Shown here piece by piece: positions 11,347 to 47,807 of a stretch of DNA of 64,000 nt. The notes under the pieces were generated by a model. That model had not been told where the DNA came from and did no database searches. It saw only the letters and a list, made by a program, of their open reading frames with translations. The stretch lies in the sequence record MH752840.1; one strand, given 5' to 3'. The stretch comes from Escherichia phage vB_EcoM-Pr121LW. Positions within the stretch are counted from its first letter, which is position 1. Every line of letters starts with the position of its first letter. The translations under genes and the position numbers were made by a program.

Positions 11347-11376
11347 TAGTCCTCCCTTTGTAGGTTAAATTATATA

Positions 11377-17066: not shown

Positions 17067-17179
17067 AGATACTCCGCATCACATTCAGGGCAATGCCAAA
17101 TAAAATCGTCCAGTGCCTTGCACCAACGAAGATTGCAACGACAACCACACTTGCAAATTTTATAAATACCTGTAGACAT
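17063..17179 (-). CDS. small cysteine-rich protein, 38 aa (MSTGIYKICKCGCRCNLRWCKALDDFIWHCPECDAEYL), putative zinc ribbon
   Basis: GGAGG RBS; stop overlaps nrdG ATG (ATGA); 8 Cys in 38 aa; below the track length cut-off. Confidence 0.4.
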   Translation of the reverse strand: MSTGIYKICKCGCRCNLRWCKALDDFIWHCPECDAEYL

Positions 17180-17242
17180 ACTGTACCTCCTAGCTCACTG
17201 TGTGTCAATAATATGCCACATCCTTGTGGCTTTTGTCAAGTA

Positions 17243-32694: not shown

Positions 32695-32901
32695 TCATTC
32701 AAAGAAATGGGTGCGAGGACAAGATCCAGCCTCGCCTTGTTTCACAAGCTCGTAGAGCTCACCTTGACTTGTCTCATAAAGGCAAATACGTTTACCATTG
32801 TCCCGATATACATCGACAAGATACGCTGTTTCACCTGCAAACACGACACCACAGGCCAGACATGCTGCCATGAACAAAATTGCCAACAGAAAATCTTTCA
32901 T
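32695..32901 (-). CDS. small secreted or membrane protein
   Basis: N-terminal hydrophobic signal-like segment LLAILFMAACLACGVVFA. Confidence 0.35.
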   Translation of the reverse strand: MKDFLLAILFMAACLACGVVFAGETAYLVDVYRDNGKRICLYETSQGELYELVKQGEAGSCPRTHFFE

Positions 32902-32906
32902 GGTTA

Positions 32907-32935
32907 AGCCCTCCTAAACATTTTATGAGGTAACA
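32907..32935 (-). promoter_or_regulatory. sigma70-like promoter (minus strand) TTGACA-17-TATTGT
   Basis: Reverse complement TTGACAtaaccacacggacgtggTATTGT upstream of 32695-32901; shares CATAACCACAC with the region upstream of the endolysin gene. Confidence 0.4.
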
Positions 32936-32964
32936 ATACCACGTCCGTGTGGTTATGTCAATGA

Positions 32965-33435
32965 TCAATCAAGGACAACACCGCCTGCCTTTTTAAACAC
33001 CTCGATCAACTTCTCGATCTTCTGTTCATGCTGACCATATCCAGCACCAGGTAACGAAGCCCAGCGGGAACGGCATTTATGGATAGCCTCGTGGATACGC
33101 CCTTCGTCAATGTCGGCGAGAGCCTTGCACTCACGGATAAGTTGCAACGCAATCTTGTCCTGACTGGCAGGGCCAAAATCTGGCAATCCTAACTGTTCCA
33201 TGTAGTGTTTAGCAAACTTCTCCAAAACCTGGTAACGACCAGCAGCGGAGGAGGTAAGTTTAGCATTTAGCTTAACGTACACACCTGGATGCTTGCTGTA
33301 ATCGCTAAACAGCTTGCCACCAACTATGACATCGTATCCACGATCCTTAGTGGGTTGCCTACCATTATCTGTGCCTTCCGAATATGCGATCATATCCAAG
33401 AAAGCTTTTCGTTGAACATTTTTATCAAGTTTCAT
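32965..33435 (-). CDS. endolysin, lambda R-like lytic transglycosylase
   Basis: QRKAFLDMIAYSEGTDNGRQ...GYDVIVGG...AGRYQ...WASLPGAGYGQ closely follows lambda R as recalled. Confidence 0.85.
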   Translation of the reverse strand: MKLDKNVQRKAFLDMIAYSEGTDNGRQPTKDRGYDVIVGGKLFSDYSKHPGVYVKLNAKLTSSAAGRYQVLEKFAKHYMEQLGLPDFGPASQDKIALQLIRECKALADIDEGRIHEAIHKCRSRWASLPGAGYGQHEQKIEKLIEVFKKAGGVVLD

Positions 33436-33558
33436 TTTTCATACTCTCCAGTTTACTCATAACTAACACGATCAACAACACTACACAGTGTGGTTATGTA
33501 TGTGCCGATTGAAAACCATCATTCAATTGGCTACCGTTACCTACTGAACCTTCCTACA

Positions 33559-34842
33559 TCATTCAAGCACCTCCCAAGTGTCTGGGTTAACATTTCGGAC
33601 GCAGATACCGACAGGGAATTGGTAGTTGTTGTCTTCTGTCCTTGCTTGGTATTTGAAGGTGACAAACTTGCCGATCATTTCCTGCATCCTGTCATAGCTA
33701 CGCTCCTCGTGCGTGCCTTTCATCTTCATTTTAACAACAACACCTTCCTTGTCAACACAGATAAGAACACCTTCATCATTCTTATCTTTCTCAACGTCAA
33801 TAACTTTCACCTCTGCGTCGTTGAACTTTTTCCATTTCAATGCTTCAGATGTTCGCTGACCGTACTCGTATTTACCGCAGAAATTACGCATGATAGTACC
33901 TTCATATCCTTCGGACATGAATATACCAACAGATTCTTCGCAATGATCAACTGTGTACGCAAGCTCTGCGTCAACAACCTTGATATGATCAAGCATCAGA
34001 GTGGTAACGGTATCCTCTGCATCCATAAGATCCTTGCAGCGTCCAGACTCTGTTTCTGGATCCCACCACACCTTGTCGCTAGGAATATCAAAAATGTGAT
34101 ACTCCAGATCGTAGCTACAGTACCCACCGTAACGCAAATCATCACGAACAGGCTCAACATCGACAGGAATATCTACCTTGTTGAAGTTTTTGTATGTTGA
34201 TAAGCCTGCCTTAATTGCGGCATGACGGCGTTTTTTATCTGCCTCATAGTCTTTATCGATCTCGGCCTGAATCTCTTCCTGTGTGCGCCACCGTTTAGCA
34301 AGAGACACTATTTTCTGCAAAGGAAGACCATGAATGTATAGTTCCCCATCAAGTTGTTTAATACCAGTGGTAGAATGGAAAGAACGAAGTTGCTCTAAAA
34401 GCTTTCCTTGAATAGGGTAGGACTTATTACCACGGGAAATAAATTTAGGCTCACCATTTTGGAAAACAACAAGCAGACGAAGGCCATCTAACTTACGCAA
34501 GATCCAGCAAGGTAATTTAAGTGCCTTGCCACGCTTCAGGTAGTCATGCACCAGCATGGGTAAAAGGTCAACACCCTGCTCGCAATCTTCCATGTTTTCA
34601 ACATACCCCAGACGGACTTGTTTTTCCCACTTGCTGATAGCCTCAAGCTCGGCCTGTTGCTCAGCTGTAGTCTCATTGGCACGACCTACGTTCTTAGGTG
34701 TGCATACCGTCTCTTTGTACTGCAATTTACCGTCAAGCTTGCCAAACTCTACGATAACCTTTTCGCCATCAGTGAATACTTTCCACTGTTGGTAGCTGCC
34801 ATCTTTGTTCAGTGCGTACAGTGTTGTTTTGATTTGATGCAT
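33559..34842 (-). CDS. ATP-dependent DNA ligase
   Basis: KLDGLR (motif I), EGYEGTIMRN (motif IV), LKWKKF (motif V). Confidence 0.8.
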   Translation of the reverse strand: MHQIKTTLYALNKDGSYQQWKVFTDGEKVIVEFGKLDGKLQYKETVCTPKNVGRANETTAEQQAELEAISKWEKQVRLGYVENMEDCEQGVDLLPMLVHDYLKRGKALKLPCWILRKLDGLRLLVVFQNGEPKFISRGNKSYPIQGKLLEQLRSFHSTTGIKQLDGELYIHGLPLQKIVSLAKRWRTQEEIQAEIDKDYEADKKRRHAAIKAGLSTYKNFNKVDIPVDVEPVRDDLRYGGYCSYDLEYHIFDIPSDKVWWDPETESGRCKDLMDAEDTVTTLMLDHIKVVDAELAYTVDHCEESVGIFMSEGYEGTIMRNFCGKYEYGQRTSEALKWKKFNDAEVKVIDVEKDKNDEGVLICVDKEGVVVKMKMKGTHEERSYDRMQEMIGKFVTFKYQARTEDNNYQFPVGICVRNVNPDTWEVLE

Positions 34843-35111
34843 TACTCGGCCTCTTCCTTAAAAATTTTAAACATCTCTTCTTTACTCATTACCAACCAGT
34901 CTCCCATAAAGTCAACTAGCCAATCCCCCTGGTACAAGACAAGGTTACCAAAAGGCTCGACAAGCTCACACATGCGACGAAGATCTCTGGTCCGAACAGG
35001 TGACGATGTAAACACACCTGTATCAATCCACCGTTGCAGATCAGATACTGATGAAGAGCTTCCGTCAAACTGGTGGGCTTCTACAGGTTTAGCAAGATTA
35101 AATAACGGCAT
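34842..35111 (-). CDS. hypothetical protein
   Basis: ORF. Confidence 0.35.
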   Translation of the reverse strand: MPLFNLAKPVEAHQFDGSSSSVSDLQRWIDTGVFTSSPVRTRDLRRMCELVEPFGNLVLYQGDWLVDFMGDWLVMSKEEMFKIFKEEAE

Positions 35112-35406
35112 TGCAGTCCTCCTTCTGTAGTAGGTCTTTTATAGGATAAACAAGTAAGTGTGGATCGGAATAACGTATAGTCTTATTCTGCCACACTATG
35201 AACTTTATTACAACCAAATTTACAATATCTTTATCACCATGTAGCCCAACACACACATTTGTCCATATTTTGTGGTTGAAGATCTTGCTATCGATGTAGA
35301 TTTTAGTGTCAAACTTATCTTCCATTCTACCTATAAGTTTGATCAGCTCCTTCATCTGGTCGCCAAACACAGCATCTTTTTCAAGATCTCTGGAATGCTT
35401 GTACAT
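35098..35406 (-). CDS. hypothetical protein
   Basis: ORF. Confidence 0.3.
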   Translation of the reverse strand: MYKHSRDLEKDAVFGDQMKELIKLIGRMEDKFDTKIYIDSKIFNHKIWTNVCVGLHGDKDIVNLVVIKFIVWQNKTIRYSDPHLLVYPIKDLLQKEDCNAVI

Positions 35407-35468
35407 AACTAACTACCTCGCTGCATACTTTCCATAATAAGTAAAGCCGGGATTACCCGGCTATGTTG

Positions 35469-36182
35469 TCAAATAGACTCTGTTACATCCTTGAAGCTCG
35501 AAGGCTTCATGATCTTACCTTTACTGTCAAGGAATATGATAACTTTATTACCGTTGTAGAACTCTTCCTTAGCAACAAAACCTTCGTAGCGACCACCAAA
35601 ACGACGCTCAAGATCTTTAATCTCCAACTCGATGAGTTGTTCAGCAGGCATATCTGCACTGGCACCGTGTGAATGCCGTAGATGGTTGATCCGTGCAAAC
35701 TTACTGTCATTAGATTTGAGAACCTTCCGCATCATCCCACACACATCGCCGCGAAGCTGGAACAGCAAAGCTGTTGACAACTCCGCTAAGCGGTAAGCTG
35801 ACGCTCTTTGCTTGGATGTGTTTTTCGCAGCGATCAGTGTATCATAGAACTCACCAATCTTGAACTTAAGACCTCGTGGATTATCAAACAGGTTTGACCA
35901 CTTTTCGTGATTGTCATTAACAAGATAGGCGGCATAACTTGTGACAACGTGAAGATCGCAGGCCTCTTTTAACAGGTGATCTCCACCATCACCTTTCTCC
36001 AGCTCTTCCAAAACCTCATTGAACTCTTCCTCAATGAAGCTAAGCTGTAATTCGAATGGTGTGTATGATTTTTTCACTTTAGCTGCCACACGGTTCCAGT
36101 TTTCCACCCAGTTGGCAGACCAAAGGTAGTTTTCAGGCTGAGACAGTTTTTCCAGGTTGTCGATCAGTTTAGTATTCAGCAT
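35469..36182 (-). CDS. putative MazG-like nucleotide pyrophosphohydrolase
   Basis: FIEEEFNEVLEELEKGD...LLKEACDL resembles the MazG EExxE...D metal-binding helices. Confidence 0.35.
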   Translation of the reverse strand: MLNTKLIDNLEKLSQPENYLWSANWVENWNRVAAKVKKSYTPFELQLSFIEEEFNEVLEELEKGDGGDHLLKEACDLHVVTSYAAYLVNDNHEKWSNLFDNPRGLKFKIGEFYDTLIAAKNTSKQRASAYRLAELSTALLFQLRGDVCGMMRKVLKSNDSKFARINHLRHSHGASADMPAEQLIELEIKDLERRFGGRYEGFVAKEEFYNGNKVIIFLDSKGKIMKPSSFKDVTESI

Positions 36183-36195
36183 TAAAGGTCTCCTT

Positions 36196-36957
36196 TTAAA
36201 GTTCCATAAAGTTTTCTACAGTTTCAATAAATGCTTTATCAGAGAAAGCGTCAACAGCACCGTTAAACCATACAGGGATCCCGCGATCCTCATATTGATA
36301 AAGGTCGCTACGTGAAATGCCACTTCCATCTGCACTCTGCGAGTCATACTTGTTTACAATCAGCAGTTTTGTGCCTTTACAAGTAGCAGGAAACAATTCC
36401 CAGTTAAAATTAATAACTGTGTTAGAACAACCTACCAGGATCACCATATCATTGCTTGTGAGAGATGTCAACAGGTCATACATGTCTGTATACTTAGGAG
36501 CAACCTCACCGAAGAACACTACATTAGGCTTAACCCAGGTATACTTGCCTGTATCTACCTCCGTATATCCGATATTTTTAATTACATCGTTACCTTCAGC
36601 ATCTTCGTAGGTGATTTCAGGCAAATACCCGTGGACATGTAAAATATCTTCATGTTTTACACCAGCACGCTCCAGCAAATCATCTACATTGGTGGTAAGG
36701 TTGATCACACGACCAGACCAGCGGGAATACCACTCAGCGATCCGAAGATGTGCAAGGTTAGGATCAACACTGCCCAGAGCTACACGACGTGCATTGTAAA
36801 AGTCATGCACCTTATAGTAGTTCTTGGCAAAGGTGTGGATGTTGCACACCTCATCGATGCTGAAATTCTCCCACATTGCAGTGCTACCAGATCGGAAAGT
36901 GGGAATACCAGATTCAGCGCTCAAACCGGCACCGGAGATAATAATCAGTCGTCGCAT
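36196..36957 (-). CDS. Sir2/CobB-family NAD-dependent protein, lacking the zinc-binding cysteines
   Basis: GAGLSAESGIPTFR, FYNARR, NLTTNVDDLLERAG, HVHG and VVFFGE motifs in sirtuin order; no CxxC pairs. Confidence 0.7.
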   Translation of the reverse strand: MRRLIIISGAGLSAESGIPTFRSGSTAMWENFSIDEVCNIHTFAKNYYKVHDFYNARRVALGSVDPNLAHLRIAEWYSRWSGRVINLTTNVDDLLERAGVKHEDILHVHGYLPEITYEDAEGNDVIKNIGYTEVDTGKYTWVKPNVVFFGEVAPKYTDMYDLLTSLTSNDMVILVGCSNTVINFNWELFPATCKGTKLLIVNKYDSQSADGSGISRSDLYQYEDRGIPVWFNGAVDAFSDKAFIETVENFMEL

Positions 36958-36965
36958 AAGTGTCC

Positions 36966-37316
36966 TCAGTAGATGTTTTGTTTAATCTCTATTCCAAACT
37001 TCTTGAATGAGTCAGCAGCAAGCATAAATTTACGAGCTGCCGATGGATTAGAAGTATGTACGAAAATCTTCACGTTGTCAATCACTGGAGGCTTACCGAA
37101 TACAAATTTTTCCTCCAACATGGATAGGCAATCGTATCCTTCGAATACTTCTCCTAGGTCGTTGTCCATATGCCACTCAGAAACGCGTCTGTAGAGCTTT
37201 CCCTTATCGTTAATAAAATCCATAAACTCTGAGGAATTCTTCAGCCAAATAGCGTCTGGGAGTCCATAATTTGACGGATCTCTCAAATCATCCAGCCACA
37301 CAATCCACTTCTTCAT
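36966..37316 (-). CDS. hypothetical protein, possibly co-functional with the Sir2-like gene
   Basis: ORF with 4-nt overlap to RNA ligase gene. Confidence 0.35.
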   Translation of the reverse strand: MKKWIVWLDDLRDPSNYGLPDAIWLKNSSEFMDFINDKGKLYRRVSEWHMDNDLGEVFEGYDCLSMLEEKFVFGKPPVIDNVKIFVHTSNPSAARKFMLAADSFKKFGIEIKQNIY

Positions 37317-38248
37317 TGCATATAGTCCTCGTTGTGGAAATAGTAGTCCAGTATCTCACGACGCTCCTGCTCTAATAAGCAATTCCACACATCTTCTGTA
37401 TAGTTGCTACGAATAAATTTTACCATACCGTAAAACTCTTCGTCAACACGTTTAAAGATATCATCATCCCAAATCTTCCAAGCTTTACCCCTCATTACTG
37501 CCTTCCGTGCCAGATAGTATGGAGACTTGATCTTCAGCTGCAGATCATAAGGGTAGTAAGGCTTACGAATCATATACCCTTCACCTCTTGTTTCTGCAGC
37601 TAATTCTTTTGCATAGCTGAACGGAATTTCACGCACAGTGTGAGGACGTTTTGCACCAAGGTATTTGGCAATCCCATCTAAAGCTGCTTCTGGTAGCATT
37701 ATTCCAGAATCATTATATCTGCAACCTATCAAATATGCGCCATGATCTTCCTGAACAATATGCGGATCTGAAGGGTGGCAAATTTCAAACATGAATGTCA
37801 TGTTTTCATTGCCCATAACCTTCTTGATAAGATCTAAATTACCACATTGCTCCTTGATGGTTTCTTTTGCGAGGTTACAATATGGGGAATCAAGAGACCC
37901 GGTTGTTGAGAACAATAGTTCACCTTTATGAGATGATACCACACCGAGGAATCCGTTCTTTTTCTCTACCGCAGTAACAAGTTTACTGTCCGGTAGGTTG
38001 GTGGAGTTTTCTCCTAAGTTGAATACTTTTGTGAAAGGCCATGCCACAACATTCCCCTCATTGCCAACAACAATACCTCGGCACTCCAGTAAACGCGGAG
38101 ACAAATGCCACAGATCGTTGTAGAATACTTTTCTGGCATATTTATAGATCTTTAATCCAAGATCTGGATAATACCGACTGGTTACAAGACCTTTGTCTAC
38201 TAGGTCATCTGCATTAAAATACTTCATCATACGTTCCTCATTTGTCAT
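37313..38248 (-). CDS. RNA ligase (Rnl2-like nucleotidyltransferase)
   Basis: EKKNGF (motif I-like KxNG), EGYMIRKP (motif IV), LKIKSPYY (motif V). Confidence 0.5.
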   Translation of the reverse strand: MTNEERMMKYFNADDLVDKGLVTSRYYPDLGLKIYKYARKVFYNDLWHLSPRLLECRGIVVGNEGNVVAWPFTKVFNLGENSTNLPDSKLVTAVEKKNGFLGVVSSHKGELLFSTTGSLDSPYCNLAKETIKEQCGNLDLIKKVMGNENMTFMFEICHPSDPHIVQEDHGAYLIGCRYNDSGIMLPEAALDGIAKYLGAKRPHTVREIPFSYAKELAAETRGEGYMIRKPYYPYDLQLKIKSPYYLARKAVMRGKAWKIWDDDIFKRVDEEFYGMVKFIRSNYTEDVWNCLLEQERREILDYYFHNEDYMQ

Positions 38249-38291
38249 TTTGTCAGTCTATCCTGCCACACAAATAACCTAGTGTCAACAC

Positions 38292-38320
38292 TTGAAATTA
38301 ACAAAACAGTTAGGTATACT
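38292..38320 (+). promoter_or_regulatory. sigma70-like promoter TTGAAA-17-TATACT
   Basis: Hexamers at 38292-38297 and 38315-38320 in the divergent intergenic region. Confidence 0.5.
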
Positions 38321-38348
38321 ATCATTAAAATTAAAACGGAGGATTGCT

Positions 38349-38759
38349 ATGTCTAAAATGCTATATATCGTGCGTGGTCTGCCAGGGTCTGGCAAATCAA
38401 CACTGGCAAATGCGCTATCTTTAGAAGGTCTGTATCCACATTTTGAGAATGACATGTTTTGGTATGACGATGACGGCAATTACAACTGGGATGCAAGTAA
38501 AGTAACACTCGCAGCAAAATGGTGCAAAGATAACGTAGAAGATATGATGCGTATGGGATACGACCGTATCGTGGTAAGTAATACGTTTACAAAAGAAAAA
38601 CATGTGCAGGAATATGTTGACATGGCAATCAGTCATGGGTATAGTTATACCGTAATCGTGGTTGAAAACCGCCACGGTAATAAAAGCATTCATGATGTTC
38701 CAGACAAGGTTGTGGATCGTATGGAACGCCAGCTTAAAAACTGCATTAAACTTAAATGA
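38349..38759 (+). CDS. P-loop kinase, polynucleotide-kinase-like
   Basis: GGAGG RBS 6 nt before ATG; Walker A GLPGSGKST; track ORF starts at a TTG that is the promoter -35. Confidence 0.5.
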   Translation: MSKMLYIVRGLPGSGKSTLANALSLEGLYPHFENDMFWYDDDGNYNWDASKVTLAAKWCKDNVEDMMRMGYDRIVVSNTFTKEKHVQEYVDMAISHGYSYTVIVVENRHGNKSIHDVPDKVVDRMERQLKNCIKLK

Positions 38760-38766
38760 GGAATGT

Positions 38767-39321
38767 ATGAAATACTTTGTAACAAGCGATACGCACTTTC
38801 TCCACCAGCGGGTCATGGAGTTTGATTCATGTCAAAAACACAGATCTCAATATGATCACAATCTTGACAGTATGAATGCGGGAATCATCACCGAGTGGAA
38901 CTCCGTTGTGTCACCTGCAGACACTGTGTTCCACCTGGGAGATATTGCGTGCACTAATGATAAGAATATCAACAACTTACTTCCAGATATTCTAAATATG
39001 TTGAACGGACATATTATTCTTGTTCGTGGCAACCATGACACAAGGACGACTGTCAGAATTATGAAAGAGTTCGGTCATGAGGTTGTAGATTATTACGAGC
39101 TTCGCCACAACAAGAATTTGATCTGTATGAGCCATTACCAGTTTGCAAAGTGGAACAGAAAGCCTCACGGATCAGTCCAACTGTTCGGTCATGCTCACGG
39201 AACCACACAACAGTTGTTTGGCAGGCAGCTTGATGTCGGTTGGGATGTGTGGGGGAGACTCTTACCATTAGAAGAGGCATACCGTATTGCAATGAGTTTT
39301 GATATTGACAGCAGGGAGTAA
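38767..39321 (+). CDS. calcineurin-like metallophosphoesterase
   Basis: DTHF (motif I), GDIACTND (II), GNHD (III), GHAH. Confidence 0.7.
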   Translation: MKYFVTSDTHFLHQRVMEFDSCQKHRSQYDHNLDSMNAGIITEWNSVVSPADTVFHLGDIACTNDKNINNLLPDILNMLNGHIILVRGNHDTRTTVRIMKEFGHEVVDYYELRHNKNLICMSHYQFAKWNRKPHGSVQLFGHAHGTTQQLFGRQLDVGWDVWGRLLPLEEAYRIAMSFDIDSRE

Positions 39322-39368
39322 TCCCTGCTATTTTAAAGAAAATTGCCACACAAGGAGAATCAGGAGAT

Positions 39369-39719
39369 ATGAAAGATGGGGATAAGCTGCTATATCTTAA
39401 AGTCCCCCTTGAAATACTATCTATGTCAAAAGTTTTGAATGACACAACTGGGGAGGTTGTTGTTCTTGACTTGTATGACAAGATTGTATACTGCTACCTG
39501 CACAACTGGTATAAGCTTGGAGGAAATTCCCGCTTCACACCAAGCACAAGGAAAATTGCAGCAGATGTTGGGATAAAGAAAACAAAAGCAGCAGCGTGCG
39601 TTAAAACTTTAGAATGTGCAGGAGTGGTTGAAACATCCACACAAGGGAGAGGTAAAAGATGCACATTTTCCAAAGTTTTGCCACCAGAAGAAGTTATTCG
39701 AATGTCAACAACTGGTTAG
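39369..39719 (+). CDS. putative DNA-binding protein (HTH)
   Basis: TRKIAADVGIKKTKAAACVKTLECAGVVE helix-turn-helix-like segment; immediately upstream of palindrome array. Confidence 0.4.
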   Translation: MKDGDKLLYLKVPLEILSMSKVLNDTTGEVVVLDLYDKIVYCYLHNWYKLGGNSRFTPSTRKIAADVGIKKTKAAACVKTLECAGVVETSTQGRGKRCTFSKVLPPEEVIRMSTTG

Positions 39720-39794
39720 ACCAGTAAAAACTTAAATATCTGTACTATAAGGGTTTGTATGTTTTATGTTCACCATGGAACAGAAACTATTAAC

Positions 39795-39875
39795 TGTCCG
39801 TGATACGGACACCACTGTCCGTCACGCGGACACATCTGCCCGTAATACGGACACTAACTGTCCGTGATACGGACA
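39795..39875. repeat. Four phased copies of a 17-bp palindrome TGTCCG-N5-CGGACA (39795-39811, 39816-39832, 39837-39853, 39859-39875)
   Basis: Direct reading; centre-to-centre spacing 21/21/22 bp; copy 3 has one substitution (TGCCCG). Confidence 0.7.
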
Positions 39876-39914
39876 CATAAAGAATATAACTAAAATAACT
39901 AAATAATAAAAAAT

Positions 39915-40000
39915 AAAAGATCTAGTACTTATGGTACTAAGTACATATACTTAACTTATGTAGAATATACTAGATCCTAAGTACCATGTTTTAAATTTAT
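39915..40000. promoter_or_regulatory. AT-rich region with nested inverted repeats (candidate origin or regulatory site)
   Basis: AGATCTAGTA...TACTAGATC and ATGGTACTAAG...CTAAGTACCAT inverted repeats in an AT-rich stretch. Confidence 0.35.
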
Positions 40001-40019
40001 TACTTTCTATAGGTAGTGT

Positions 40020-40260
40020 CGGCCCTTCATTGGCACTCGCCTACGAGGGGCGAGATGCCGGGCCTCCATAGTGCACACATGCAGGTCTGTTAACATGTGT
40101 GGGAGCGAAGCGGCGCAGGCCAAAGGCCGAGCACTAATGTGGACCACCGACGAAAGCTTGCCAGCGCCGTAAGGAGTCGGTTGAGAGCCTCCCGCGCGAG
40201 TTTGGATAAAGTTTATGTGTGGAAACGGACAATGAGGCCCCTAAATCGCTCCACAGCCAT
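40020..40260 (+). ncRNA. GC-rich structured noncoding island (candidate structured RNA, class unknown)
   Basis: No ORF of 60 aa or more; several perfect hairpins (CTCGCC/GGCGAG, CACACATG/CATGTGTG, GGCC-AAA-GGCC); GC content well above neighbours. Confidence 0.25.
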
Positions 40261-40358
40261 ATAAACTATACCAAGTAAGGCAATCGCACCAGTTTGATAG
40301 AAAAGCTCGTTACAAAGCGATACAGCGAGTTTTTCTATAACTTGAAGAGGAGGCAGCT

Positions 40359-40937
40359 ATGAGTCCACGCAAAGATGACCGTGAAAAGATTGCAAAACGT
40401 TATCAGAATGAAGAACAGATGGAGAAAACTTTCAAGTGGAAGCCAGGTTTCCAGCGTAATCATTCTAACGCTCGTGATCGTAAGCATCCGGATAAGTGGT
40501 TAACACCGCCAAATGATGGCATGCAGGTTGGTGATGAGAAGGAGCTGTCACCTGGAAAAGATGGCAACTACATTCGCACTAAGGAAGCAGGTCCAAAGGA
40601 TGACAGCTATCTTGTAGATAAGGTTCTTGATGGTATTGATGTGGATGTTGACACTGCACGAAACCTTTTTCTTGGTTGGTATCGTACAGGGTTTTTCGAC
40701 ATCAAGGCTATTCGTCGTGTTTGCGATATTAAAAAGTCTGCCTATGATGATGACTCTCTACATCGCACTCTGAGACAATACTCAGAGAGATACGGTCATC
40801 CAGTCATCACTATTGACGATATTAACGAAGTGATGTATCATGCAGAGGTTGTTGCAGGTAGATTCGGTGATGCATATCTCGGTATTCTTTCTGCAAAAGA
40901 TGAGGTAATGTTAAATAAAATTTACTATGAACGCTGA
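40359..40937 (+). CDS. hypothetical protein
   Basis: AGGAGG RBS; ORF. Confidence 0.45.
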   Translation: MSPRKDDREKIAKRYQNEEQMEKTFKWKPGFQRNHSNARDRKHPDKWLTPPNDGMQVGDEKELSPGKDGNYIRTKEAGPKDDSYLVDKVLDGIDVDVDTARNLFLGWYRTGFFDIKAIRRVCDIKKSAYDDDSLHRTLRQYSERYGHPVITIDDINEVMYHAEVVAGRFGDAYLGILSAKDEVMLNKIYYER

Positions 40938-41136
40938 GGAGCGCTTAATGAACAACCCGGTAGCAAAGAACTGTAATAAGTTCAACAAGTCTGCAATTCA
41001 CACTGACAGGAAAAAGAGCTGGTCTCCTGACATTGACGAGGAGCTTGAGAGTTACTTTGAAGACCTGGTCACTAATGCAGATGAGGTTGCGATTAAAGAA
41101 TACGCAGACAGGAAGGATAAGGCCGGAATCTGTTGA
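40927..41136 (+). CDS. hypothetical small protein
   Basis: ORF overlapping previous stop. Confidence 0.3.
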   Translation: MNAEERLMNNPVAKNCNKFNKSAIHTDRKKSWSPDIDEELESYFEDLVTNADEVAIKEYADRKDKAGIC

Positions 41137-41212
41137 CAAAAATAGTGTTACCTGATAAGATCTGCAATATGATGTGATGCAATTTTAACTTACGAGGTCT
41201 ACAGGTAATGCT

Positions 41213-41455
41213 ATGTTTAAGGTTAAGCTCGTTTTTCGTTCCATGAATGAGGATTATTTAGAAGATGAAGGTGAATTTCGTGCACTGGATGATGCAATAG
41301 ATTTTGCCAACGACTTAGCTTGTATGAATACAGGTTATGGGCTATGCTGTTGGGATGGTGGTGTTCAGATCGGTGATAGCAAGATCTTCTACTTCTACCC
41401 TGAGCCTGATAACAAACAAATTAAGTATGTTTTATTTATTTGTGCTTTACAATGA
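41213..41455 (+). CDS. hypothetical small protein
   Basis: ORF. Confidence 0.35.
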   Translation: MFKVKLVFRSMNEDYLEDEGEFRALDDAIDFANDLACMNTGYGLCCWDGGVQIGDSKIFYFYPEPDNKQIKYVLFICALQ

Positions 41456-41479
41456 GGTTGTTTTCGTGTATCATGATGA

Positions 41480-41740
41480 ATATCCAATTTAAAGATGAAT
41501 TTGATGGCTTTATCTCCGGATGCTTTGAAACAGGGTTCGGAGAAGACTGAGTTCCCCTCAGAGGGCTTGATAGTGCACCACACTTAAAATGGTAGGGGCA
41601 GCCAGCACATGACGATGTGACCCCAGCCAACCTGTAACAAGGTCGAGCCGAAGCGCGGGTAATAGGCCTCTGGTAACCCACTTGTTGGGTCTTGCTGGTC
41701 CAGGACGCTGGACAAGTCGCAGGGAATACCACCCTGCGGC
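41480..41740 (+). ncRNA. second GC-rich structured noncoding island (candidate structured RNA)
   Basis: Only low-quality ORFs overlap; GC-rich with multiple complementary segments; ends at a consensus promoter. Confidence 0.2.
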
Positions 41741-41744
41741 GAAC

Positions 41745-41773
41745 TTGACAATCAGTATTTGCTATGATAAAAT
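41745..41773 (+). promoter_or_regulatory. sigma70-like promoter TTGACA-17-TAAAAT
   Basis: Consensus hexamers with 17-nt spacer upstream of 41802 gene. Confidence 0.55.
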
Positions 41774-41801
41774 CCACCTATCACGTGATAATGGAGGAAA
41801 C

Positions 41802-42140
41802 ATGGCGGATACAACTAAAAAGCGTCGCCGTAGAGGCAGACCTCTGAAAGAGGAGTCCAACGCCATTCAGCTAGAGAAGAACATCCTTGATATGAAGGAA
41901 TCTTTTATAGCGATGGTTCCAGAAGCTCACAAAGTTTTAAGAGAGCTGATGTTGGACCCGAAAACCAAACAAAATATTCGTCAAAGCATTGCAGAGTATG
42001 TTCTTGATAAGGCAGACCGAATGCAGGAAGAATATGATGAGATGTTTGGTGAAGAGGAAGAGGTGGTAGTAGAAGAGGCTGAAAAACCAGCACCTTTTAT
42101 GCCATTTACCACAGAAATACAACCTGTTAGCAATAGCTAA
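41802..42140 (+). CDS. hypothetical protein with basic N-terminus and acidic C-terminus (possible small terminase or DNA-binding protein)
   Basis: GGAGG RBS; MADTTKKRRRRGRPLK N-terminus. Confidence 0.4.
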   Translation: MADTTKKRRRRGRPLKEESNAIQLEKNILDMKESFIAMVPEAHKVLRELMLDPKTKQNIRQSIAEYVLDKADRMQEEYDEMFGEEEEVVVEEAEKPAPFMPFTTEIQPVSNS

Positions 42141-42149
42141 AATATTTTC

Positions 42150-42178
42150 TTGACAAACTTTGCTTAACAGTGTAATAT
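42150..42178 (+). promoter_or_regulatory. sigma70-like promoter TTGACA-17-TAATAT driving the tRNA cluster
   Basis: Consensus -35 with 17-nt spacer ~60 nt upstream of first tRNA. Confidence 0.55.
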
Positions 42179-42236
42179 TGTAAACATGGTCTCCCACCTT
42201 TTCTGGCGGCTAAGGTGTAAAAGAAAGCCACCCAGT

Positions 42237-42311
42237 GCCCTGTTAGCTTAGTGGATAAAGCAGCGGCCTTCTAAGCCGTTGACACTGGTTCGAGTCCAGT
42301 ACGGGGTGCCA
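42237..42311 (+). tRNA. tRNA-Arg (anticodon TCT)
   Basis: Manual cloverleaf: 7-bp acceptor stem, D-stem GCTT/AAGC, anticodon loop CTTCTAA, T-loop TTCGAGT, encoded CCA. Confidence 0.75.
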
Positions 42312-42442
42312 AGTTCTTTTTAATGTAGCTTACTTTAGCAGAGTAAATCTTCGGCAAGTGGCGGTAACCACTTTTACCGATACCTCATAGTTAGTGGTGA
42401 GAACACTAGCTATTTTAAAAAGAATTTAAATATTAGTATTTA

Positions 42443-42530
42443 GGTGAGTTAATTCCGTAGGGGTAGCGGGGCAGACTGTAAATCTGTTATCATTGCGATT
42501 CGGGTGGTTCGACTCCATCACTCACCACCA
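42443..42530 (+). tRNA. tRNA-Tyr (anticodon GTA), long variable arm
   Basis: Perfect 7-bp acceptor stem GGTGAGT/ACTCACC, anticodon arm GCAGA-CTGTAAA-TCTGT, T-loop TTCGACT, CCA; 88 nt. Confidence 0.7.
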
Positions 42531-42644
42531 AATTTATATTTTTAAATGCATAAATTATACAGATAATGGCATTGATATTTATCGTCGTTTATACTAGTCA
42601 CTAACTGCTCGAAAATCAGTGTCATTATCAGTATTGTTTATAAA

Positions 42645-42735
42645 AGAGGGTAGGGAGCAATGGTGCTCAAGCGGTCTTGAAAACCGTCCCGTTGAGGATG
42701 ACTCGATGATGGTTCGATTCCATTACCCTCTGCCA
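42645..42735 (+). tRNA. tRNA-Ser (anticodon TGA), long variable arm
   Basis: Perfect 7-bp acceptor stem AGAGGGT/ACCCTCT, anticodon loop CTTGAAA, T-loop TTCGATT, CCA; 91 nt. Confidence 0.7.
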
Positions 42736-42833
42736 TATTGTTGACCTTGTAATTAAGCGAAAGCCGGAAGCAGAACCGGATTATCAAATGTTACAGTCGT
42801 CATCGCCGACTAGCAACATTGTCAACATACTGA

Positions 42834-42932
42834 GCTAGGTAAGCCCTTTGGCAAGGGCGAGGATTTTTAATCCTGAAAATAGACGAGGTAGTCGTTGAAT
42901 ACATAGGTGGTTCGATTCCACCACCTAGCACC
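42834..42932 (+). tRNA. atypical tRNA-like gene (anticodon loop TTTTTAA, possibly Lys-TTT), ~30-nt extra region, no full CCA
   Basis: Acceptor GCTAGGT/ACCTAGC, D-arm GCCC-TTTGGCAA-GGGC, T-arm GGTGG-TTCGATT-CCACC are clean; anticodon stem and variable region are irregular. Confidence 0.35.
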
Positions 42933-42937
42933 TTTTT

Positions 42938-43013
42938 GCTGATGTAGCACAATTGGTAGTGCAATTGATTTGTAATCAATAGGTTGCAGGTTCAAGTCCT
43001 GCCATCAGCACCA
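42938..43013 (+). tRNA. tRNA-Thr (anticodon TGT)
   Basis: Acceptor GCTGATG/CATCAGC, D-stem GCAC/GTGC, anticodon arm ATTGA-TTTGTAA-TCAAT, T-loop TTCAAGT, CCA. Confidence 0.8.
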
Positions 43014-43014
43014 T

Positions 43015-43089
43015 GGCCCTGTAGCTGGAAGGTTCAAGCAAGCGACTCATAATCGCCAGACGGTGGTTCAATTCCACCCAGGGCCACCA
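43015..43089 (+). tRNA. tRNA-Met or tRNA-Ile2 (anticodon CAT), elongator type
   Basis: Acceptor GGCCCTG/CAGGGCC with G1-C72 pair, anticodon loop CTCATAA, T-arm GGTGG-TTCAATT-CCACC, CCA. Confidence 0.7.
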
Positions 43090-43100
43090 AATAGTAAATA

Positions 43101-43177
43101 CTCCGCGTAGCTCAGCTTGGTAGAGCGCCTGATTTGGGATCAGGAGGTCGAGTGTTCGAATCACTCCGTGGAGACCA
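43101..43177 (+). tRNA. tRNA-Pro (anticodon TGG)
   Basis: C1-G72 acceptor pair as in bacterial tRNA-Pro, D-stem GCTC/GAGC, anticodon arm CCTGA-TTTGGGA-TCAGG, T-loop TTCGAAT, CCA. Confidence 0.8.
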
Positions 43178-43223
43178 CTTTCAGTTATACTTTAAACATA
43201 TACACACAAAAGGAACCTTTAAA

Positions 43224-43493
43224 ATGTATACACTTAAAATTGTAGAGCGTGTAAATCCAACAAATACTGTAGATTTTCGTGACGATTTCAATCCTCTGGC
43301 TGTAAATCTTCGAGAGTCATATCATGAACTCAGCTGCGATGCAGTGGTGGTCTTTTTTGAAGACAACTCTGAAGGGGCGGTAGCTTGTGTTGTTGATAGT
43401 GAGCAGAAGTTTTATATTTACAGAGATGTAGATGCATACTTGATGAATGAAAATGCAGTTACTGTTAGAATCATCCACCGAGTGCCTCGATAA
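43224..43493 (+). CDS. hypothetical protein
   Basis: ATG with AGGAA RBS; followed by terminator. Confidence 0.4.
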   Translation: MYTLKIVERVNPTNTVDFRDDFNPLAVNLRESYHELSCDAVVVFFEDNSEGAVACVVDSEQKFYIYRDVDAYLMNENAVTVRIIHRVPR

Positions 43494-43548
43494 GTATTAG
43501 TCTCCTTTTAGTTAGTTTCGATCTATTTAGGTTACTAAATTTTAACCC

Positions 43549-43580
43549 GCCCCGTTAGCTGTATAGCTGCGGGGTTTTTT
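43549..43580 (+). terminator. rho-independent terminator
   Basis: CCCCG...CGGGG stem followed by TTTTTT. Confidence 0.55.
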
Positions 43581-43598
43581 CGTTTCTGGAGCCTTAAA

Positions 43599-43997
43599 AT
43601 GATTTCAGGTTTAACATGGCTTAGTAGGTATAGAGGGATCATAAAAGGTTTAGTTTTTGCAGCGGCTATAGGTACAGCTTATCTTGGGGCCGTGTATTGG
43701 TTTAACTCTAAGCTTAATGATGCCTACCAAGAGGGTGTGTCAGCAACAGAGTTAAAGTGGGAACGGATCCTTGATCAGCAACAAAAGCAGGCCGACAAAA
43801 TTAAAATGGGCCACGCAGAGGAGGTTAAAAACCTTGAAAAATCTCTTTCTGATCTGCAGGATAAATTAAATATAGCTGAGAGGGCAGGTAGAGAAAAGCA
43901 GATTATCTACCTCCAATCACCTGAAGGTAAGAAGTCAACACTCCCTGATCAGCTTATAGATATTTATAATGAGAGTATCAATCAGGAGGATCTATGA
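43599..43997 (+). CDS. i-spanin (Rz-like): N-terminal TM anchor plus coiled coil
   Basis: TM segment GLVFAAAIGTAYLGAVYWF followed by charged helical region; downstream overlapping lipoprotein gene. Confidence 0.5.
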   Translation: MISGLTWLSRYRGIIKGLVFAAAIGTAYLGAVYWFNSKLNDAYQEGVSATELKWERILDQQQKQADKIKMGHAEEVKNLEKSLSDLQDKLNIAERAGREKQIIYLQSPEGKKSTLPDQLIDIYNESINQEDL

Positions 43998-44281
43998 GAG
44001 TTGCTGCACTGTTTATTGTGTGCTTTTTATTATGCGGGTGTGCAACCAGCGTTGAGAGAGAATACAAGATTGACCCTCCTGATGTAGGAAGGTTGATTGT
44101 TAAACCCCCGGAAGGTGCCATGAAACCACCTGCTAAAGCTATGCCTTTGAAGAAAGGTGCGCCAGATGCAGTGAATTCTGGCATTATGAGGGATAATAAT
44201 CTGTCTTGTAGCAATGATAGAGCTAAATTGATCATTTTGCAAGACTATATTAGAACACTGTTTCCAAAGGAGAGAGGTTAA
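43994..44281 (+). CDS. o-spanin (Rz1-like) outer-membrane lipoprotein
   Basis: Signal peptide with lipobox-like LLCGCAT, proline-rich mature region; 4-nt overlap with previous gene. Confidence 0.5.
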   Translation: MRVAALFIVCFLLCGCATSVEREYKIDPPDVGRLIVKPPEGAMKPPAKAMPLKKGAPDAVNSGIMRDNNLSCSNDRAKLIILQDYIRTLFPKERG

Positions 44282-44706
44282 TGTCTAAGATTTACGGACC
44301 GTGTTCTGAAAAGCAGAAGATGATCCTCGAAAACGATGCAGATATTTTGGTAATCGGCGGTGCCGCAGGGTCTGGCAAGTCGTTCCTCTTGCAGTTGATG
44401 CCGCTTAAAATTATCGATGACCCCCACAGCTCTGTGGTTATGTTCCGAAGAACAACCCCACAGTTGGAAGGTGAGGGTGGACTATGGCCTAAAGCAGTAG
44501 CTATTTATAGCGATCTGCCTGAAAACATTAAGCCAAAGTTCAGAGAGAAGGATCATAAGTTCATTTTTCCACGGTTTGATCCGAACACTGGCAAGTGGGA
44601 TAGAAGCAAAAAGGGAGCTGTTGTAAAATACTGCCACATGGAGTATGTACAAGATAAGCTTAACCATCAAGGGCTTGAGTACACCATGGTTTGCTTCGAT
44701 GAGGGT
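44281..44706 (+). CDS. terminase large subunit, exon 1 (ATPase N-terminal part)
   Basis: Walker A GGAAGSGKS and Walker B MVCFDE; frame closes with TAA right at the intron start. Confidence 0.7.
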
Positions 44707-45026
44707 TAATTTGTAGCTCTCGTAAAACCTCCCTAATTGCGGGGAAATCTTTACTATTAATACCACCAACCTGTCATGGTAACATGATAGAGGCTTCGAA
44801 GAGAGATCGAAGGTATGGTAACAGTGTGTTAATTTAGATAATCCGCAGCGAAGCATCCGAGAGGATGAACGTTCAACGACTAGTCGAAAGACGTAGAATC
44901 AAGCGATTCGAAACGGGAGGGTAAGCGGTTGTTGTCGCTTATAAGATATAGTCTGGTCTGCATGGAGACATGCAGCTGCCTGAAAAATGGCGGGGCAAGA
45001 CTAGCGACCTTGCCCGAACATAGACG
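44707..45026 (+). ncRNA. group I self-splicing intron (ORF-less) in the terminase large subunit gene; boundaries approximate
   Basis: Conserved elements in order: P AATTGCGGGGAAA (~44737), Q AATCCGCAGC (~44842), R GTTCAACGACTAGTC (~44870), S AAGATATAGTC (~44940); intron begins GGT|TAATT like T4 td; no ORF inside. Confidence 0.65.
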
Positions 45027-46148
45027 ACACAATTCGAATGGGAGCAGATAGACTATCTGATGTCTCGTCTGCGATCTCAGTCAAAGTATCCATCAAGGAT
45101 GGTTATCAGCTGTAACCCTGATTCAGAACACATGCTTGCCAAACTGGTTAGATGGTGGTTGGACGATGAAGGGTATCCAGATCCGGAGAAATGTGGTAAG
45201 AAAAGATATTTTATCCGACGCGACGGTGAATTTATTTGGGGGGACTCTAAGGAGGAGTTGATAGAGAAATACACCACGGTTAACGGACTGGGTGTAGAGA
45301 TCAAGCCAAGACCGTTGTCATTCTCGTTCATAGGCGCAACAATATTCGATAATCCTGTCTGTTTGAGAGACAACCCAGAATACCTTGCTTTCCTCGAAGG
45401 TCTACCAGAGCTGGAAAAAGCTCAGCTTCTCCATGGTAACTGGTTTGCAAAGCCTGAGGGTGCAAACTATTTTCAAAGATCTTTCCTTCGTGATGCCGAT
45501 AGAGTACCCCTTGGATCAGTATCTTGCAGGGCATGGGATAAGGCAGGAACCGAGAGAACTTCTGGCAATAAATTTCCTGACTTTACTGCCAGTATTAAGG
45601 TAAGTAAAGATAGCGACGGCTTTTATTACCTGTCAGGGGATTATTGTCCTGAAAACGTGGATGACGGGAGGTATTCCACAGGTCTGGAAGGCAAGTTCTG
45701 TAAAAAGGCTGGTGAACGAGATGTGATCATCAGGAAACAGGCGCAGTTTGATGGTGATGATTGCATAATCGTATTCTCTGTGGACCCTGGTCAGGCAGGT
45801 AAGAGTGAGTTCTTAACCTCATCCAGATCCTTGCTCGCAGAAGGGTTCAGGGTTGAAGAAGACCCAATGCCTTCCAACAAGTCTAAACTGACAAGGTTCT
45901 CACCTTTTGCCAATCTTGCCCAACAAGGGATGGTGAGGATTGTAAAATCCAGTTTCCATCCTGATACTCTGGAAGCATTTCTGACCGAACTTGAAAAATT
46001 CAACGGGGAAAGATCAACATTTAACAGAAAAGACGACTGGGCTGACTGTGTAGCTTCTGCAATTAATTTCCTGGAGAAAGAGGAGGTAGCACTTCCTTGT
46101 GTGATTCCATCAATCTCATCACCTTCTATGTTCAAGCGTTTTATCTAG
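45027..46148 (+). CDS. terminase large subunit, exon 2 (nuclease domain); exon start uncertain within 45027-45060
   Basis: Frame open from 45024; 45027 follows a G and restores frame with exon 1; product size and position before the putative portal gene. Confidence 0.6.
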   Translation, partial: TQFEWEQIDYLMSRLRSQSKYPSRMVISCNPDSEHMLAKLVRWWLDDEGYPDPEKCGKKRYFIRRDGEFIWGDSKEELIEKYTTVNGLGVEIKPRPLSFSFIGATIFDNPVCLRDNPEYLAFLEGLPELEKAQLLHGNWFAKPEGANYFQRSFLRDADRVPLGSVSCRAWDKAGTERTSGNKFPDFTASIKVSKDSDGFYYLSGDYCPENVDDGRYSTGLEGKFCKKAGERDVIIRKQAQFDGDDCIIVFSVDPGQAGKSEFLTSSRSLLAEGFRVEEDPMPSNKSKLTRFSPFANLAQQGMVRIVKSSFHPDTLEAFLTELEKFNGERSTFNRKDDWADCVASAINFLEKEEVALPCVIPSISSPSMFKRFI

Positions 46149-46198
46149 GTGTTGCCAATCTTAATTAGATGTGGTAGAATAGATTAATCGGAGATACT

Positions 46199-46223
46199 AG
46201 CCCTCTAACACGAGGGCTATTTT
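46199..46223 (+). terminator. rho-independent terminator
   Basis: AGCCCTC-TAACAC-GAGGGCT hairpin followed by ATTTTG. Confidence 0.5.
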
Positions 46224-46250
46224 GTTATACTGTTTTGAGGGGTAAAGCTT

Positions 46251-47807
46251 GTGTCCAAAAAGAACCGCAGGAAACACAACGCCACAGCCAAAACTGTGAA
46301 TAAATCTGGGAACGCAGGCGCACCAACTCATAATGTTCGTATGAGTGAGATCGGTTCTGGCGCACTTTCCCAAATTATGGCAGAATCGCAATCTATGATG
46401 GTTGAGGAATTGCGTTGGCCTCAGCTGATTGCCACAGTGGAGACTATGAAATGTGATTCCACAGTTGCTACTGCCTTAGATACAAAATACGTTTTCATCA
46501 CGAAAGCATTTAATGATTTTAAGATCCTTTATAATGTTAAAAGTGAAGACTCTAAGAAAGCTGCCGAGCTTATAGAGTATTCTTTGCGTAATTTGGCAAA
46601 CCAACAAACCCTTCGGGATATTGCAAGAAGCGCAGCTACCTTTAACGAGTATGGTTTTTCACTGTTTGAGAAAGTATACCGCAGAGAGAAAGAAGGTAAA
46701 TATGCTGGGATGCTTCTTATTGATAAAATTGCATTCCGACCTCAGGCCAGTCTGTCTAGATCAGAGCCGTTTGTCTTTGACAAGAATAGTAGAACGCTGA
46801 CAGGTATTTATCAGTCACCTAATGCATTTCTAAACACTCAGAATGCACGCTGGGCTGGACCTCTTGCTGCAATGCCTTCAAAAGGCTTTAATGAGCCTGA
46901 AATTTTCATCCCTGCTAAAAAGCTTATGCTCATGACCCTGTCAGGAACAGAATCTAACCCTGCAGGTGTGTCACCTATGATAGGTTGCTACAGATCTTTC
47001 CGTGAGAAAGTTCTGATTGAAAACCTTGAGGTTGTTGGCTGTTCCAAAGACCTTGGTGGTGTACTTGAGCTGAAAATTCCTTCCAATATTTTGAACAAGG
47101 CCAGCATTGACCCGAATTCAATGGAAGGGAGAATGGTTGCAGATCTTATGCTTGACGCAGCAAACGCCCATAGTGGTGAGCAAAGTTTCTTTATACTTCC
47201 GTCTGATAGAGATAAGTCTGGTAAAGAGCTTTACTCCATGACCCTGAAGGGGGTTGACGGTATGGGTAAGCAGTATTCCACTAAAGATTTGATTGATGCC
47301 CGTAAGAAGGCGATTCTTGACCGTTTCGGTGCTGGCTTTATTAACCTCGGTAACGATAACGTTGGATCCTTCTCTCTGTCTGAGTCAAAACAGTCTATCC
47401 ATGGTCATTTTGTTCAGCGTGATATAGATATTATCACTGAAGCCTTCAATAAAGATCTTATTCCACAGCTTCTGGCATTGAATGGTATCATCCTTGAAGA
47501 TGATGATATGCCTAAACTGAAACCTGGTCTGATTGAAGAGGTGGACATGGAGAGCTTCTCCAAGTTTGTCCAGAGGATCGGTGCTGTAGGTTACTTGCCA
47601 AAAACTCCTGCAGTAATTAATAAGATTCTTGAAGTAGGTGGGTTTGATGAAAGATTTGACGAGGACATGGATCAGGAAGAGCTGATGAAGCTCTTGGGCC
47701 AGGACATCAGTAGAGCTGGTGATGGAATGGCTGCAGGATCCACTGGTAACGGCACTTCTAAGATGTCATCAACCAGAGATAATTCCATATCCAACATGGA
47801 AAATTAA
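46251..47807 (+). CDS. putative portal protein (GTG start)
   Basis: 518 aa, immediately downstream of terminase; position and size only. Confidence 0.45.
   Translation: MSKKNRRKHNATAKTVNKSGNAGAPTHNVRMSEIGSGALSQIMAESQSMMVEELRWPQLIATVETMKCDSTVATALDTKYVFITKAFNDFKILYNVKSEDSKKAAELIEYSLRNLANQQTLRDIARSAATFNEYGFSLFEKVYRREKEGKYAGMLLIDKIAFRPQASLSRSEPFVFDKNSRTLTGIYQSPNAFLNTQNARWAGPLAAMPSKGFNEPEIFIPAKKLMLMTLSGTESNPAGVSPMIGCYRSFREKVLIENLEVVGCSKDLGGVLELKIPSNILNKASIDPNSMEGRMVADLMLDAANAHSGEQSFFILPSDRDKSGKELYSMTLKGVDGMGKQYSTKDLIDARKKAILDRFGAGFINLGNDNVGSFSLSESKQSIHGHFVQRDIDIITEAFNKDLIPQLLALNGIILEDDDMPKLKPGLIEEVDMESFSKFVQRIGAVGYLPKTPAVINKILEVGGFDERFDEDMDQEELMKLLGQDISRAGDGMAAGSTGNGTSKMSSTRDNSISNMEN

Follow-up and report, generated by a model that had tools for sequence, protein, structure and literature searches.

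In the 64,000-nucleotide (nt) stretch of Escherichia phage vB_EcoM-Pr121LW analysed here (sequence record MH752840.1; the whole stretch is referred to as the window), the genes for host lysis are scattered. A lambda R-type endolysin is encoded on the minus strand, a two-component spanin is encoded on the plus strand in another module, and no holin is recognisable next to either. An earlier note on this DNA had described lysis functions split in this way across strands and modules, and the gene positions bear it out. Such a scatter of lysis genes with an unrecognised holin is real and ordinary, and has been in print since 2013. The best single candidate for the holin, put forward tentatively, is the ortholog of open reading frame (ORF) 129 of phage rV5, and the ORF that adjoins the endolysin gene most likely encodes a small secreted protein. 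By its nucleotide and protein matches the window is about 64 kb of the genome of an rV5-like myophage (Vequintavirus), about 135 kb in all; the remaining genes were viewed through the rV5 record. The genes concerned are the following.

32965-33435, minus strand: endolysin, a predicted soluble lambda R-type lytic transglycosylase of 156 residues; ortholog of rV5 ORF89, LL12 gp90 and Murica gp198.

43599-43997, plus strand: i-spanin (Rz-like) of 132 residues, with an N-terminal transmembrane domain (TMD) and a periplasmic helical domain; first member of the rV5 ORF67/66 pair.

43994-44281, plus strand: o-spanin (Rz1-like) lipoprotein of 95 residues, with the lipobox LLCG-C (Cys16) and a short Pro-rich mature part; second member of the pair.

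11110-11346, minus strand: 78-residue protein with two TMDs, the best holin candidate in the window; ortholog of rV5 ORF129 (94058-94294), the published putative holin.

32695-32901, minus strand: small, probably secreted protein of 68 residues (rV5 ORF90, phrog_4641), with a predicted signal peptide and an invariant β-sheet domain of about 45 residues that contains two Cys.

The endolysin is of the lambda R type

The earlier note had read 32965-33435 on the minus strand as a lambda R-like endolysin, an assignment supported by structure-linked homology, family membership and the active-site motif. Searched with phmmer against lambda lysozyme [PDB 1AM7; this and 3D3D were the lambda R-type reference structures for the class assignment], the protein gives E = 3.4e-56, its residues 4-154 aligning with residues 3-153. 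The sequence AYSEGT aligns with AWSEGT of lambda R, so the AxSEGT motif, whose Glu is the catalytic residue of lambda R, is kept. The protein also matches PHROG 90 (‘endolysin’) at 3e-56, and its ortholog in related phages carries an endolysin annotation.

The maximum 19-residue Kyte-Doolittle hydropathy of the endolysin is only 0.42, which argues that it has neither a signal peptide nor a signal-anchor-release (SAR) segment, and there is no uncharged run of 15 residues or more. Since it has no hydrophobic stretch, the enzyme is predicted to be cytoplasmic, soluble and dependent on a holin. Upstream, a gap of 123 nt separates the gene from that of a DNA ligase; downstream, the 68-residue ORF (32695-32901) follows after 63 nt and is itself followed by an HNH endonuclease gene. 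A promoter match lies between the endolysin gene and the 68-residue ORF.

32933-32961, minus strand: sigma70-like promoter match, TTGACA-17-TATTGT with TG, equivalent to ‘P90’ of rV5.

This match, like all others from our promoter scans, is at the level of the consensus, and such matches were not above shuffle expectation.

The spanins adjoin the terminase gene

The i-spanin has a single TMD (residues 14-32) and matches PHROG 4297 (‘Rz-like spanin’) at 2.7e-48. The o-spanin begins with a signal sequence that leads up to the lipobox Cys, MRVAALFIVCFLLCG-C, and matches PHROG 1267, also labelled ‘Rz-like spanin’, at 1.3e-22. The two genes overlap by 4 nt, with the o-spanin gene placed after the i-spanin gene and not embedded in it, and LL12 annotates the same pair as I-spanin and O-spanin. 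In the spanin census of Kongari et al. the rv5 pair is listed among the ‘separated’ spanins (PMC6139136). By these sequence features, 43599-44281 is assigned as a two-component, Rz/Rz1-like spanin of separated architecture.

Upstream of the i-spanin gene lie an ORF of 119 residues without a TMD and then a cluster of tRNA genes. Downstream is the gene for the large terminase subunit.

44281-44709, plus strand: terL exon 1, which starts at the end of the o-spanin gene.

The family matches, the TMD, the lipobox and the start of terL at 44281 thus uphold the earlier placing of an i-/o-spanin pair on the plus strand immediately before the terminase.

No holin is recognisable beside the endolysin or the spanins

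The genes that adjoin the endolysin and the spanins encode the ligase, the 68-residue protein, the protein without a TMD and tRNAs. None is identifiable as a holin, as the earlier note had also found, and re-annotation places no canonical holin adjacent to the endolysin. Within the endolysin and spanin genes and in the gaps that flank them, no TMD-bearing ORF on the same strand was found other than 32695-32901; a hidden TMD gene embedded inside or between these genes was rejected because no such ORF is there. The small hydrophobic ORFs submitted to family searches, four from the window and nine from elsewhere in rV5, matched no curated holin family [Pfam and PHROGs for all, NCBIfam for those of the window; 10877-10996 was outside the submitted set, and the rV5 ORF2 hydrolase was also run against Pfam and PHROGs].

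In the genome paper on rV5 (2013) no holin homolog was found either; the one protein for which both TMHMM and Phobius predicted two TMDs was gp129, 78 residues long and rich in Lys and Arg at its C-terminus, and it was named there as a putative holin (PMC3606486). Dispersed lysis genes or an unidentified holin have been described in the same way in the announcement of Gotham (PMC7471380) and in the papers on KPP-1 (PMC9862379) and LL12, and the CB7 paper places the spanins of CB7, rV5 and PVP-SE1 next to the large terminase gene and not in a lysis cassette (PMC7344957). Our search of the literature found no experimentally identified holin of the Vequintavirinae, no genome-wide knockdown data and no Vequintavirus transcriptome; CRISPRi-ART on EdH4 targets only the capsid gene and rIIA/B.

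Three small ORFs had been suggested as candidates by the earlier note: 11110-11346, 3738-4001 and 32695-32901. All three exist. Topology prediction gives two TMDs for the first, one for the second and a cleavable-looking signal peptide for the third. Of these, 11110-11346 is the best supported; 3738-4001, with its single TMD, is weak, and 32695-32901 is predicted to be secreted.

The ORF129 ortholog is the best single candidate

The gene at 11110-11346 maps to rV5 94058-94294, that is, ORF129, and is therefore the candidate already published. In its product a short RRVKFDD loop separates two hydrophobic stretches without charged residues (5-29 and 37-59), and the protein ends in a tail of 19 residues of which six are Lys or Arg and four Asp or Glu. 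The gene is intact in 115 phage records, and 26 clusters of homologs, at 59-100% identity, were found in a set of 5.8 billion proteins, one of them containing the identical protein recorded for vB_EcoM-Pr121LW. Within the genus, the loop and the second TMD (FDDFI.I.TAAPFWP.V) are invariant; the first TMD is variable yet hydrophobic, and basic residues persist in the tail. The family as a whole thus shows what is looked for in a holin: a small protein with one or more TMDs and a charged, hydrophilic C-terminus.

A profile search with the ORF129 family against 1.84 billion representatives found three remote relatives, P0038, P0040 and P0041, all unnamed. P0038 and P0040 are located on uncultured contigs and have 29-37% identity to the Vequintavirus proteins; they retain Y10, DDF, WP and the K-rich tail. 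Both lie in the neighbourhood familiar from Vequintavirus (NrdD/G, PhoH, ClpP, an ORF128-like gene, the two-TMD gene and an ORF133-like gene), and the context of P0041 is unrelated. Since the neighbourhood is conserved in such distant relatives, an important function of the family is modestly supported, and the gene would be older and more constrained than isolate databases suggest. A lysis role could not be argued through guilt by association, as P0038 and P0040 both sit in the same non-lysis neighbourhood.

In its overall plan the protein resembles the class II holin S21, which is also small, with two TMDs and a charged C-terminal tail; in the ORF129 family it is TMD1 that varies and TMD2 that is conserved. 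Sequence similarity to class II holins or to any other holin family is not detectable. A two-TMD candidate, CB7_82 (65 residues), is known from a Certrevirus, a related member of the subfamily; the gene for CB7_82 adjoins that of a SleB-like hydrolase, but no lysis gene lies next to ORF129.

We tentatively regard the ORF129 ortholog as the best single candidate for the holin, and several observations make the assignment doubtful. Its only family matches are phrog_10061 and phrog_4955, both without a functional label; Pfam gave no holin family at E ≤ 1, and NCBIfam gave no match. Linkage to an endolysin or spanin gene, usual for holins though not obligatory, is lacking: the distance is 21.6 kb to the endolysin gene and 32 kb to the spanin genes, and in none of the lineages examined, the remote ones included, does a homolog adjoin an endolysin or a spanin. 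The promoters predicted for its block are sigma70-type and so do not support late expression. The charges of the loop (+3/-2) and of the tail (+6/-4) leave the topology ambiguous, and the AlphaFold2 (AF2) model is of low confidence [predicted local distance difference test (pLDDT) score 64], from which no more can be read than a helical protein interrupted at AAPFWP. The protein is 87% identical to its rV5 ortholog, against a median of 97%, a divergence that a fast-evolving exclusion or immunity membrane protein could equally explain. Two-TMD class II pinholins of the S21 type work with SAR endolysins, whereas the endolysin here is predicted to be soluble. Other small multi-TMD proteins are encoded outside the window (rV5 ORF183, ORF170 and ORF200), and in the literature we found no experiment that ties any ORF considered here to hole formation.

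A sigma70-like match (TTGACA-17-TAGTAT; 11374-11402, minus strand) ends 28 nt upstream of the start codon of the ORF129 homolog. The promoters listed for rV5 do not include it, and it matches at the level of the consensus only.

Other small membrane proteins as candidates

Apart from 3738-4001, the following small ORFs had been omitted from the earlier list of candidates, as had ORFs outside the window.

10877-10996, minus strand: 39-residue ORF with a single TMD (rV5 ORF131), in the membrane-protein cluster beside ORF129.

10247-10708, minus strand: protein of 153 residues that carries its TMD at the C-terminus (rV5 ORF133, ‘virion structural protein’, phrog_7821).

9839-10186, minus strand: 115-residue protein whose N-terminal segment is a TMD or signal anchor and whose acidic C-terminal domain contains two Cys (rV5 ORF134, phrog_11867).

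3738-4001, minus strand: 87-residue protein with a single TMD (rV5 ORF155, phrog_13956), a weak holin candidate.

3569-3709, minus strand: hydrophobic ORF of 46 residues whose C-terminus is charged (rV5 ORF156, phrog_16755), also weak as a candidate.

17014-17208, minus strand: 64-residue hydrophobic ORF with a TTG start, a remnant or variant of rV5 ORF114 that overlaps nrdG by 53 nt; an unlikely candidate.

Small membrane ORFs form two clusters on the minus strand, 9839-11346 (homologs of ORF134, ORF133, ORF131 and ORF129) and 3569-4094 (homologs of ORF156 and ORF155 together with a 27-residue ORF). The clusters could be modules for immunity, exclusion or lysis control. The gene order of 9839-11346 is kept in two distant uncultured relatives (L010 and L012).

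That the holin is one of these other proteins (3738-4001, 3569-3709, 10877-10996, 9839-10186 or 17014-17208 in the window, or the equivalents of rV5 ORF183, ORF170, ORF200 or ORF31 outside it) is an explanation we rate about as likely as the ORF129 ortholog, without holding it to be the probable one. All are small proteins, conserved across the genus, with one or more TMDs; 3738-4001, for instance, is conserved at 90-99% in 117 records, with no family assignment. Of a genome of about 135 kb the window takes in only about 64 kb, and holins are so diverse that a lack of homology excludes nothing. Outside the window the scan of rV5 picked out ORF183, with two clear TMDs, ORF170, ORF200 and ORF31, which combines a TMD with a coiled coil and lies among the late tail-fibre genes. 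However, those that were submitted to the family searches (3738-4001, 3569-3709, 9839-10186 and rV5 ORF114, ORF31, ORF170, ORF183 and ORF200) fall into no holin family, most of the alternatives have a single TMD with no long, charged tail on the cytoplasmic side, and ORF129 is the only protein to which both predictors gave two TMDs in the rV5 paper. The ORF at 17014-17208 was set aside as a holin, being truncated or rearranged relative to rV5 (72% identity, C-terminus not conserved) and overlapping nrdG.

The scan of rV5 also brought up a second peptidoglycan hydrolase outside the window. ORF2 (NC_011041, 1980-2480) is SleB-like, combines a clear signal peptide at its N-terminus with a Hydrolase_2 domain (PF07486, 2e-19), and abuts rIIA; it is relevant to lysis or entry in this group of phages.

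The ORF adjoining the endolysin most likely encodes a secreted protein

The 68-residue ORF at 32695-32901 has 95-100% identity across 119 Vequintavirus records; four further records, among them Serratia phage Kashira and Salmonella phage SSBI34, have homologs of less than 60% identity. Its family, phrog_4641, has no functional label in PHROGs. When the divergent homologs are aligned, the hydrophobic N-terminus varies freely and ends in AxA-G or S-G, and from Gly23 onward the sequence is invariant or nearly so, including Cys40 and Cys61. Cys14 fits a lipobox pattern; the lipoprotein reading was rejected because Cys14 and Cys17 are absent from the homologs. In the homolog on contig L008, which is 63% identical, the hydrophobicity of the h-region falls below the threshold for a transmembrane segment. 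The AF2 model (pLDDT 82) has an N-terminal helix and a four-stranded sheet; Foldseek searches with it against the PDB and BFVD gave no informative match and none to RI, the antiholin of T4.

Because the h-region is variable, the segment ends in AxA-G and only the mature domain is conserved, the N-terminus is read as a signal peptide. The product is most likely a Sec-secreted periplasmic miniprotein, predicted to be about 45 residues long, rather than a membrane protein or a holin; the TMD that a holin retains in its mature form is, on this prediction, lacking.

The position of the ORF 63 nt downstream of the endolysin invites the explanation that it is nevertheless the holin or a lysis regulator, such as an RI-like periplasmic antiholin. 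T4 RI is a secreted periplasmic protein, the same format as predicted here, and the conservation across the genus and the survival of the pairing with an R-type endolysin in L008 at 63% identity would suit such a partner. The case for a holin is opposed by the freely varying N-terminus with its AxA-G end, by a segment in L008 too weakly hydrophobic for a TMD and by conservation of the mature domain alone. That for a lysis partner is opposed by Kashira and SSBI34, where the slot between the ligase and exonuclease genes likewise contains the homolog but no neighbouring R-type endolysin, and by the lack of a fold match to RI or to anything informative. We consider the explanation unlikely. As the homologs of Kashira and SSBI34 do without the endolysin, adjacency to it is weak evidence for a role in lysis, and seems to result from the site at which the endolysin gene was inserted.

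A probable pathway for lysis

We think it probable that the window holds part of a dispersed, T4-style gene set that serves the ordinary three-step pathway of holin, endolysin and spanin. The R-type transglycosylase (32965-33435) would be made from the replication and nucleotide-metabolism block and, having no export signal, would accumulate harmlessly in the cytoplasm. An unlinked holin, invisible to homology, would then permeabilise the inner membrane at a set time and so let the enzyme reach the cell wall. Last, the outer membrane would be disrupted by the i-/o-spanin pair (43599-44281), whose genes come first in the packaging and structural operon. What the endolysin and the spanins are, and that no holin adjoins them or is detectable by homology, are direct results; that a holin exists, and which gene encodes it, we infer.

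T4 and many large myoviruses scatter their lysis genes. The T4 system (e, t, rI, pseT.3/pseT.2 and rIIA/B) shares with the present one the unlinked endolysin, holin and spanins and the ‘separated’ spanin architecture, and homologs of rIIA and rIIB are likewise present in the rV5-type genome, outside the window. It differs in that its endolysin is the E-type lysozyme and not of the lambda R type, and none of the ORFs scanned here matches the T-holin or RI families (Pfam, PHROGs or NCBIfam) or has the size of T. With the S-R-Rz/Rz1 cassette of lambda the window has in common the R-type lytic transglycosylase, which aligns end to end with lambda R, and the two-component type of i-/o-spanin. Unlike lambda, it lacks both a class I holin of the S type and a cassette: about 10 kb separates the endolysin gene from the spanin genes, which lie on the opposite strand and in another transcription unit, and the o-spanin gene follows the i-spanin gene instead of lying within it.

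It is very improbable that there is no canonical holin and that lysis begins through the SleB-like hydrolase (rV5 ORF2) or through joint membrane damage by several small membrane proteins, the R-type enzyme escaping secondarily: the signal peptide and hydrolase domain of ORF2, and more than 10 years of annotation by several groups without a holin, would fit, but holins are so diverse that homology commonly fails to recognise them, large-hole holins classically go together with soluble endolysins that lack an export signal, as the present one does, and plausible holin-like ORFs exist. A bolder form of the idea, for which we see little chance, is that Vequintaviruses have dispensed with a canonical holin and free the endolysin in some other way, for example through the SleB-like hydrolase, exported by Sec, acting with a set of small proteins of the membrane or periplasm, the 68-residue protein among them; its milder, similarly speculative version is that the ORF129 family (‘DDF...TAAPFWP’) constitutes a new family of large-hole holins with two TMDs.

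Genome context of the window

Between nt 32000 and 36000 the window is 99.6% identical to Escherichia phage Murica and 98.6% to LL12, with 129 matching records overall, nearly all of them Vequintavirus; nt 43000-46500 match the same group. The window runs antiparallel to the rV5 and Murica records, its minus-strand genes up to about 38270 corresponding to rV5 ORFs 82-163 and its plus-strand genes lying beyond. Gene by gene, the median amino acid identity to rV5 is 97%. The endolysin (ORF89) is 99.4% identical, ORF90 100%, the spanins (ORF67/66) 98.5% and 96.8%, and ORF129 87%. The lysis genes are the same, and in the same order, in rV5, LL12 and Murica, with no essential difference.

The ligase and nrdG alleles do differ from those of rV5. 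The DNA ligase gene that adjoins the endolysin (33559-34842, minus strand) encodes a protein only 56% identical to the rV5 ligase, and for NrdG (16593-17066, minus strand) the identity is only 53.5%. Compared with the median gene, both look like mosaic allele replacements. Between nrdD and nrdG rV5 has about 340 nt extra (ORF115/116).

Near the spanins, a group I intron (44697-44975, plus strand; Rfam RF00028, 84 bits) interrupts terL, whose exons are at 44281-44709 and 45060-46148; in rV5 and some relatives the locus contains an extra insertion with an HNH gene. Introns in terL have already been reported for rV5 and LL12. In the tRNA cluster (42237-43177, plus strand) ARAGORN calls six genes, including a 99-nt ‘tRNA-???’ (42834-42932) with a four-base anticodon call. 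It missed a tRNA-like match of Rfam at 42443-42527 (39 bits), and the tRNA-Ser at 42645-42731 has its best Rfam score to the tRNA-Sec model, below the threshold of that model.

About 18 records labelled ‘Campylobacter phage’ (MG0656xx, host listed as C. jejuni) are near-identical to rV5-like coliphage genomes; they are probably contaminant or mislabelled entries.

Significance

The missing holin is an annotation gap of a familiar kind and not a new phenomenon. Two results are of use in closing it: the ORF adjoining the endolysin can leave the list of candidates, and conservation of its gene neighbourhood in distant relatives lends some support to the published candidate gp129. Phages of the rV5 type are used in phage cocktails and products, LL12 being a component of PreforPro. 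Identification of the holin would complete the lysis pathway for the whole subfamily and might add a holin family.

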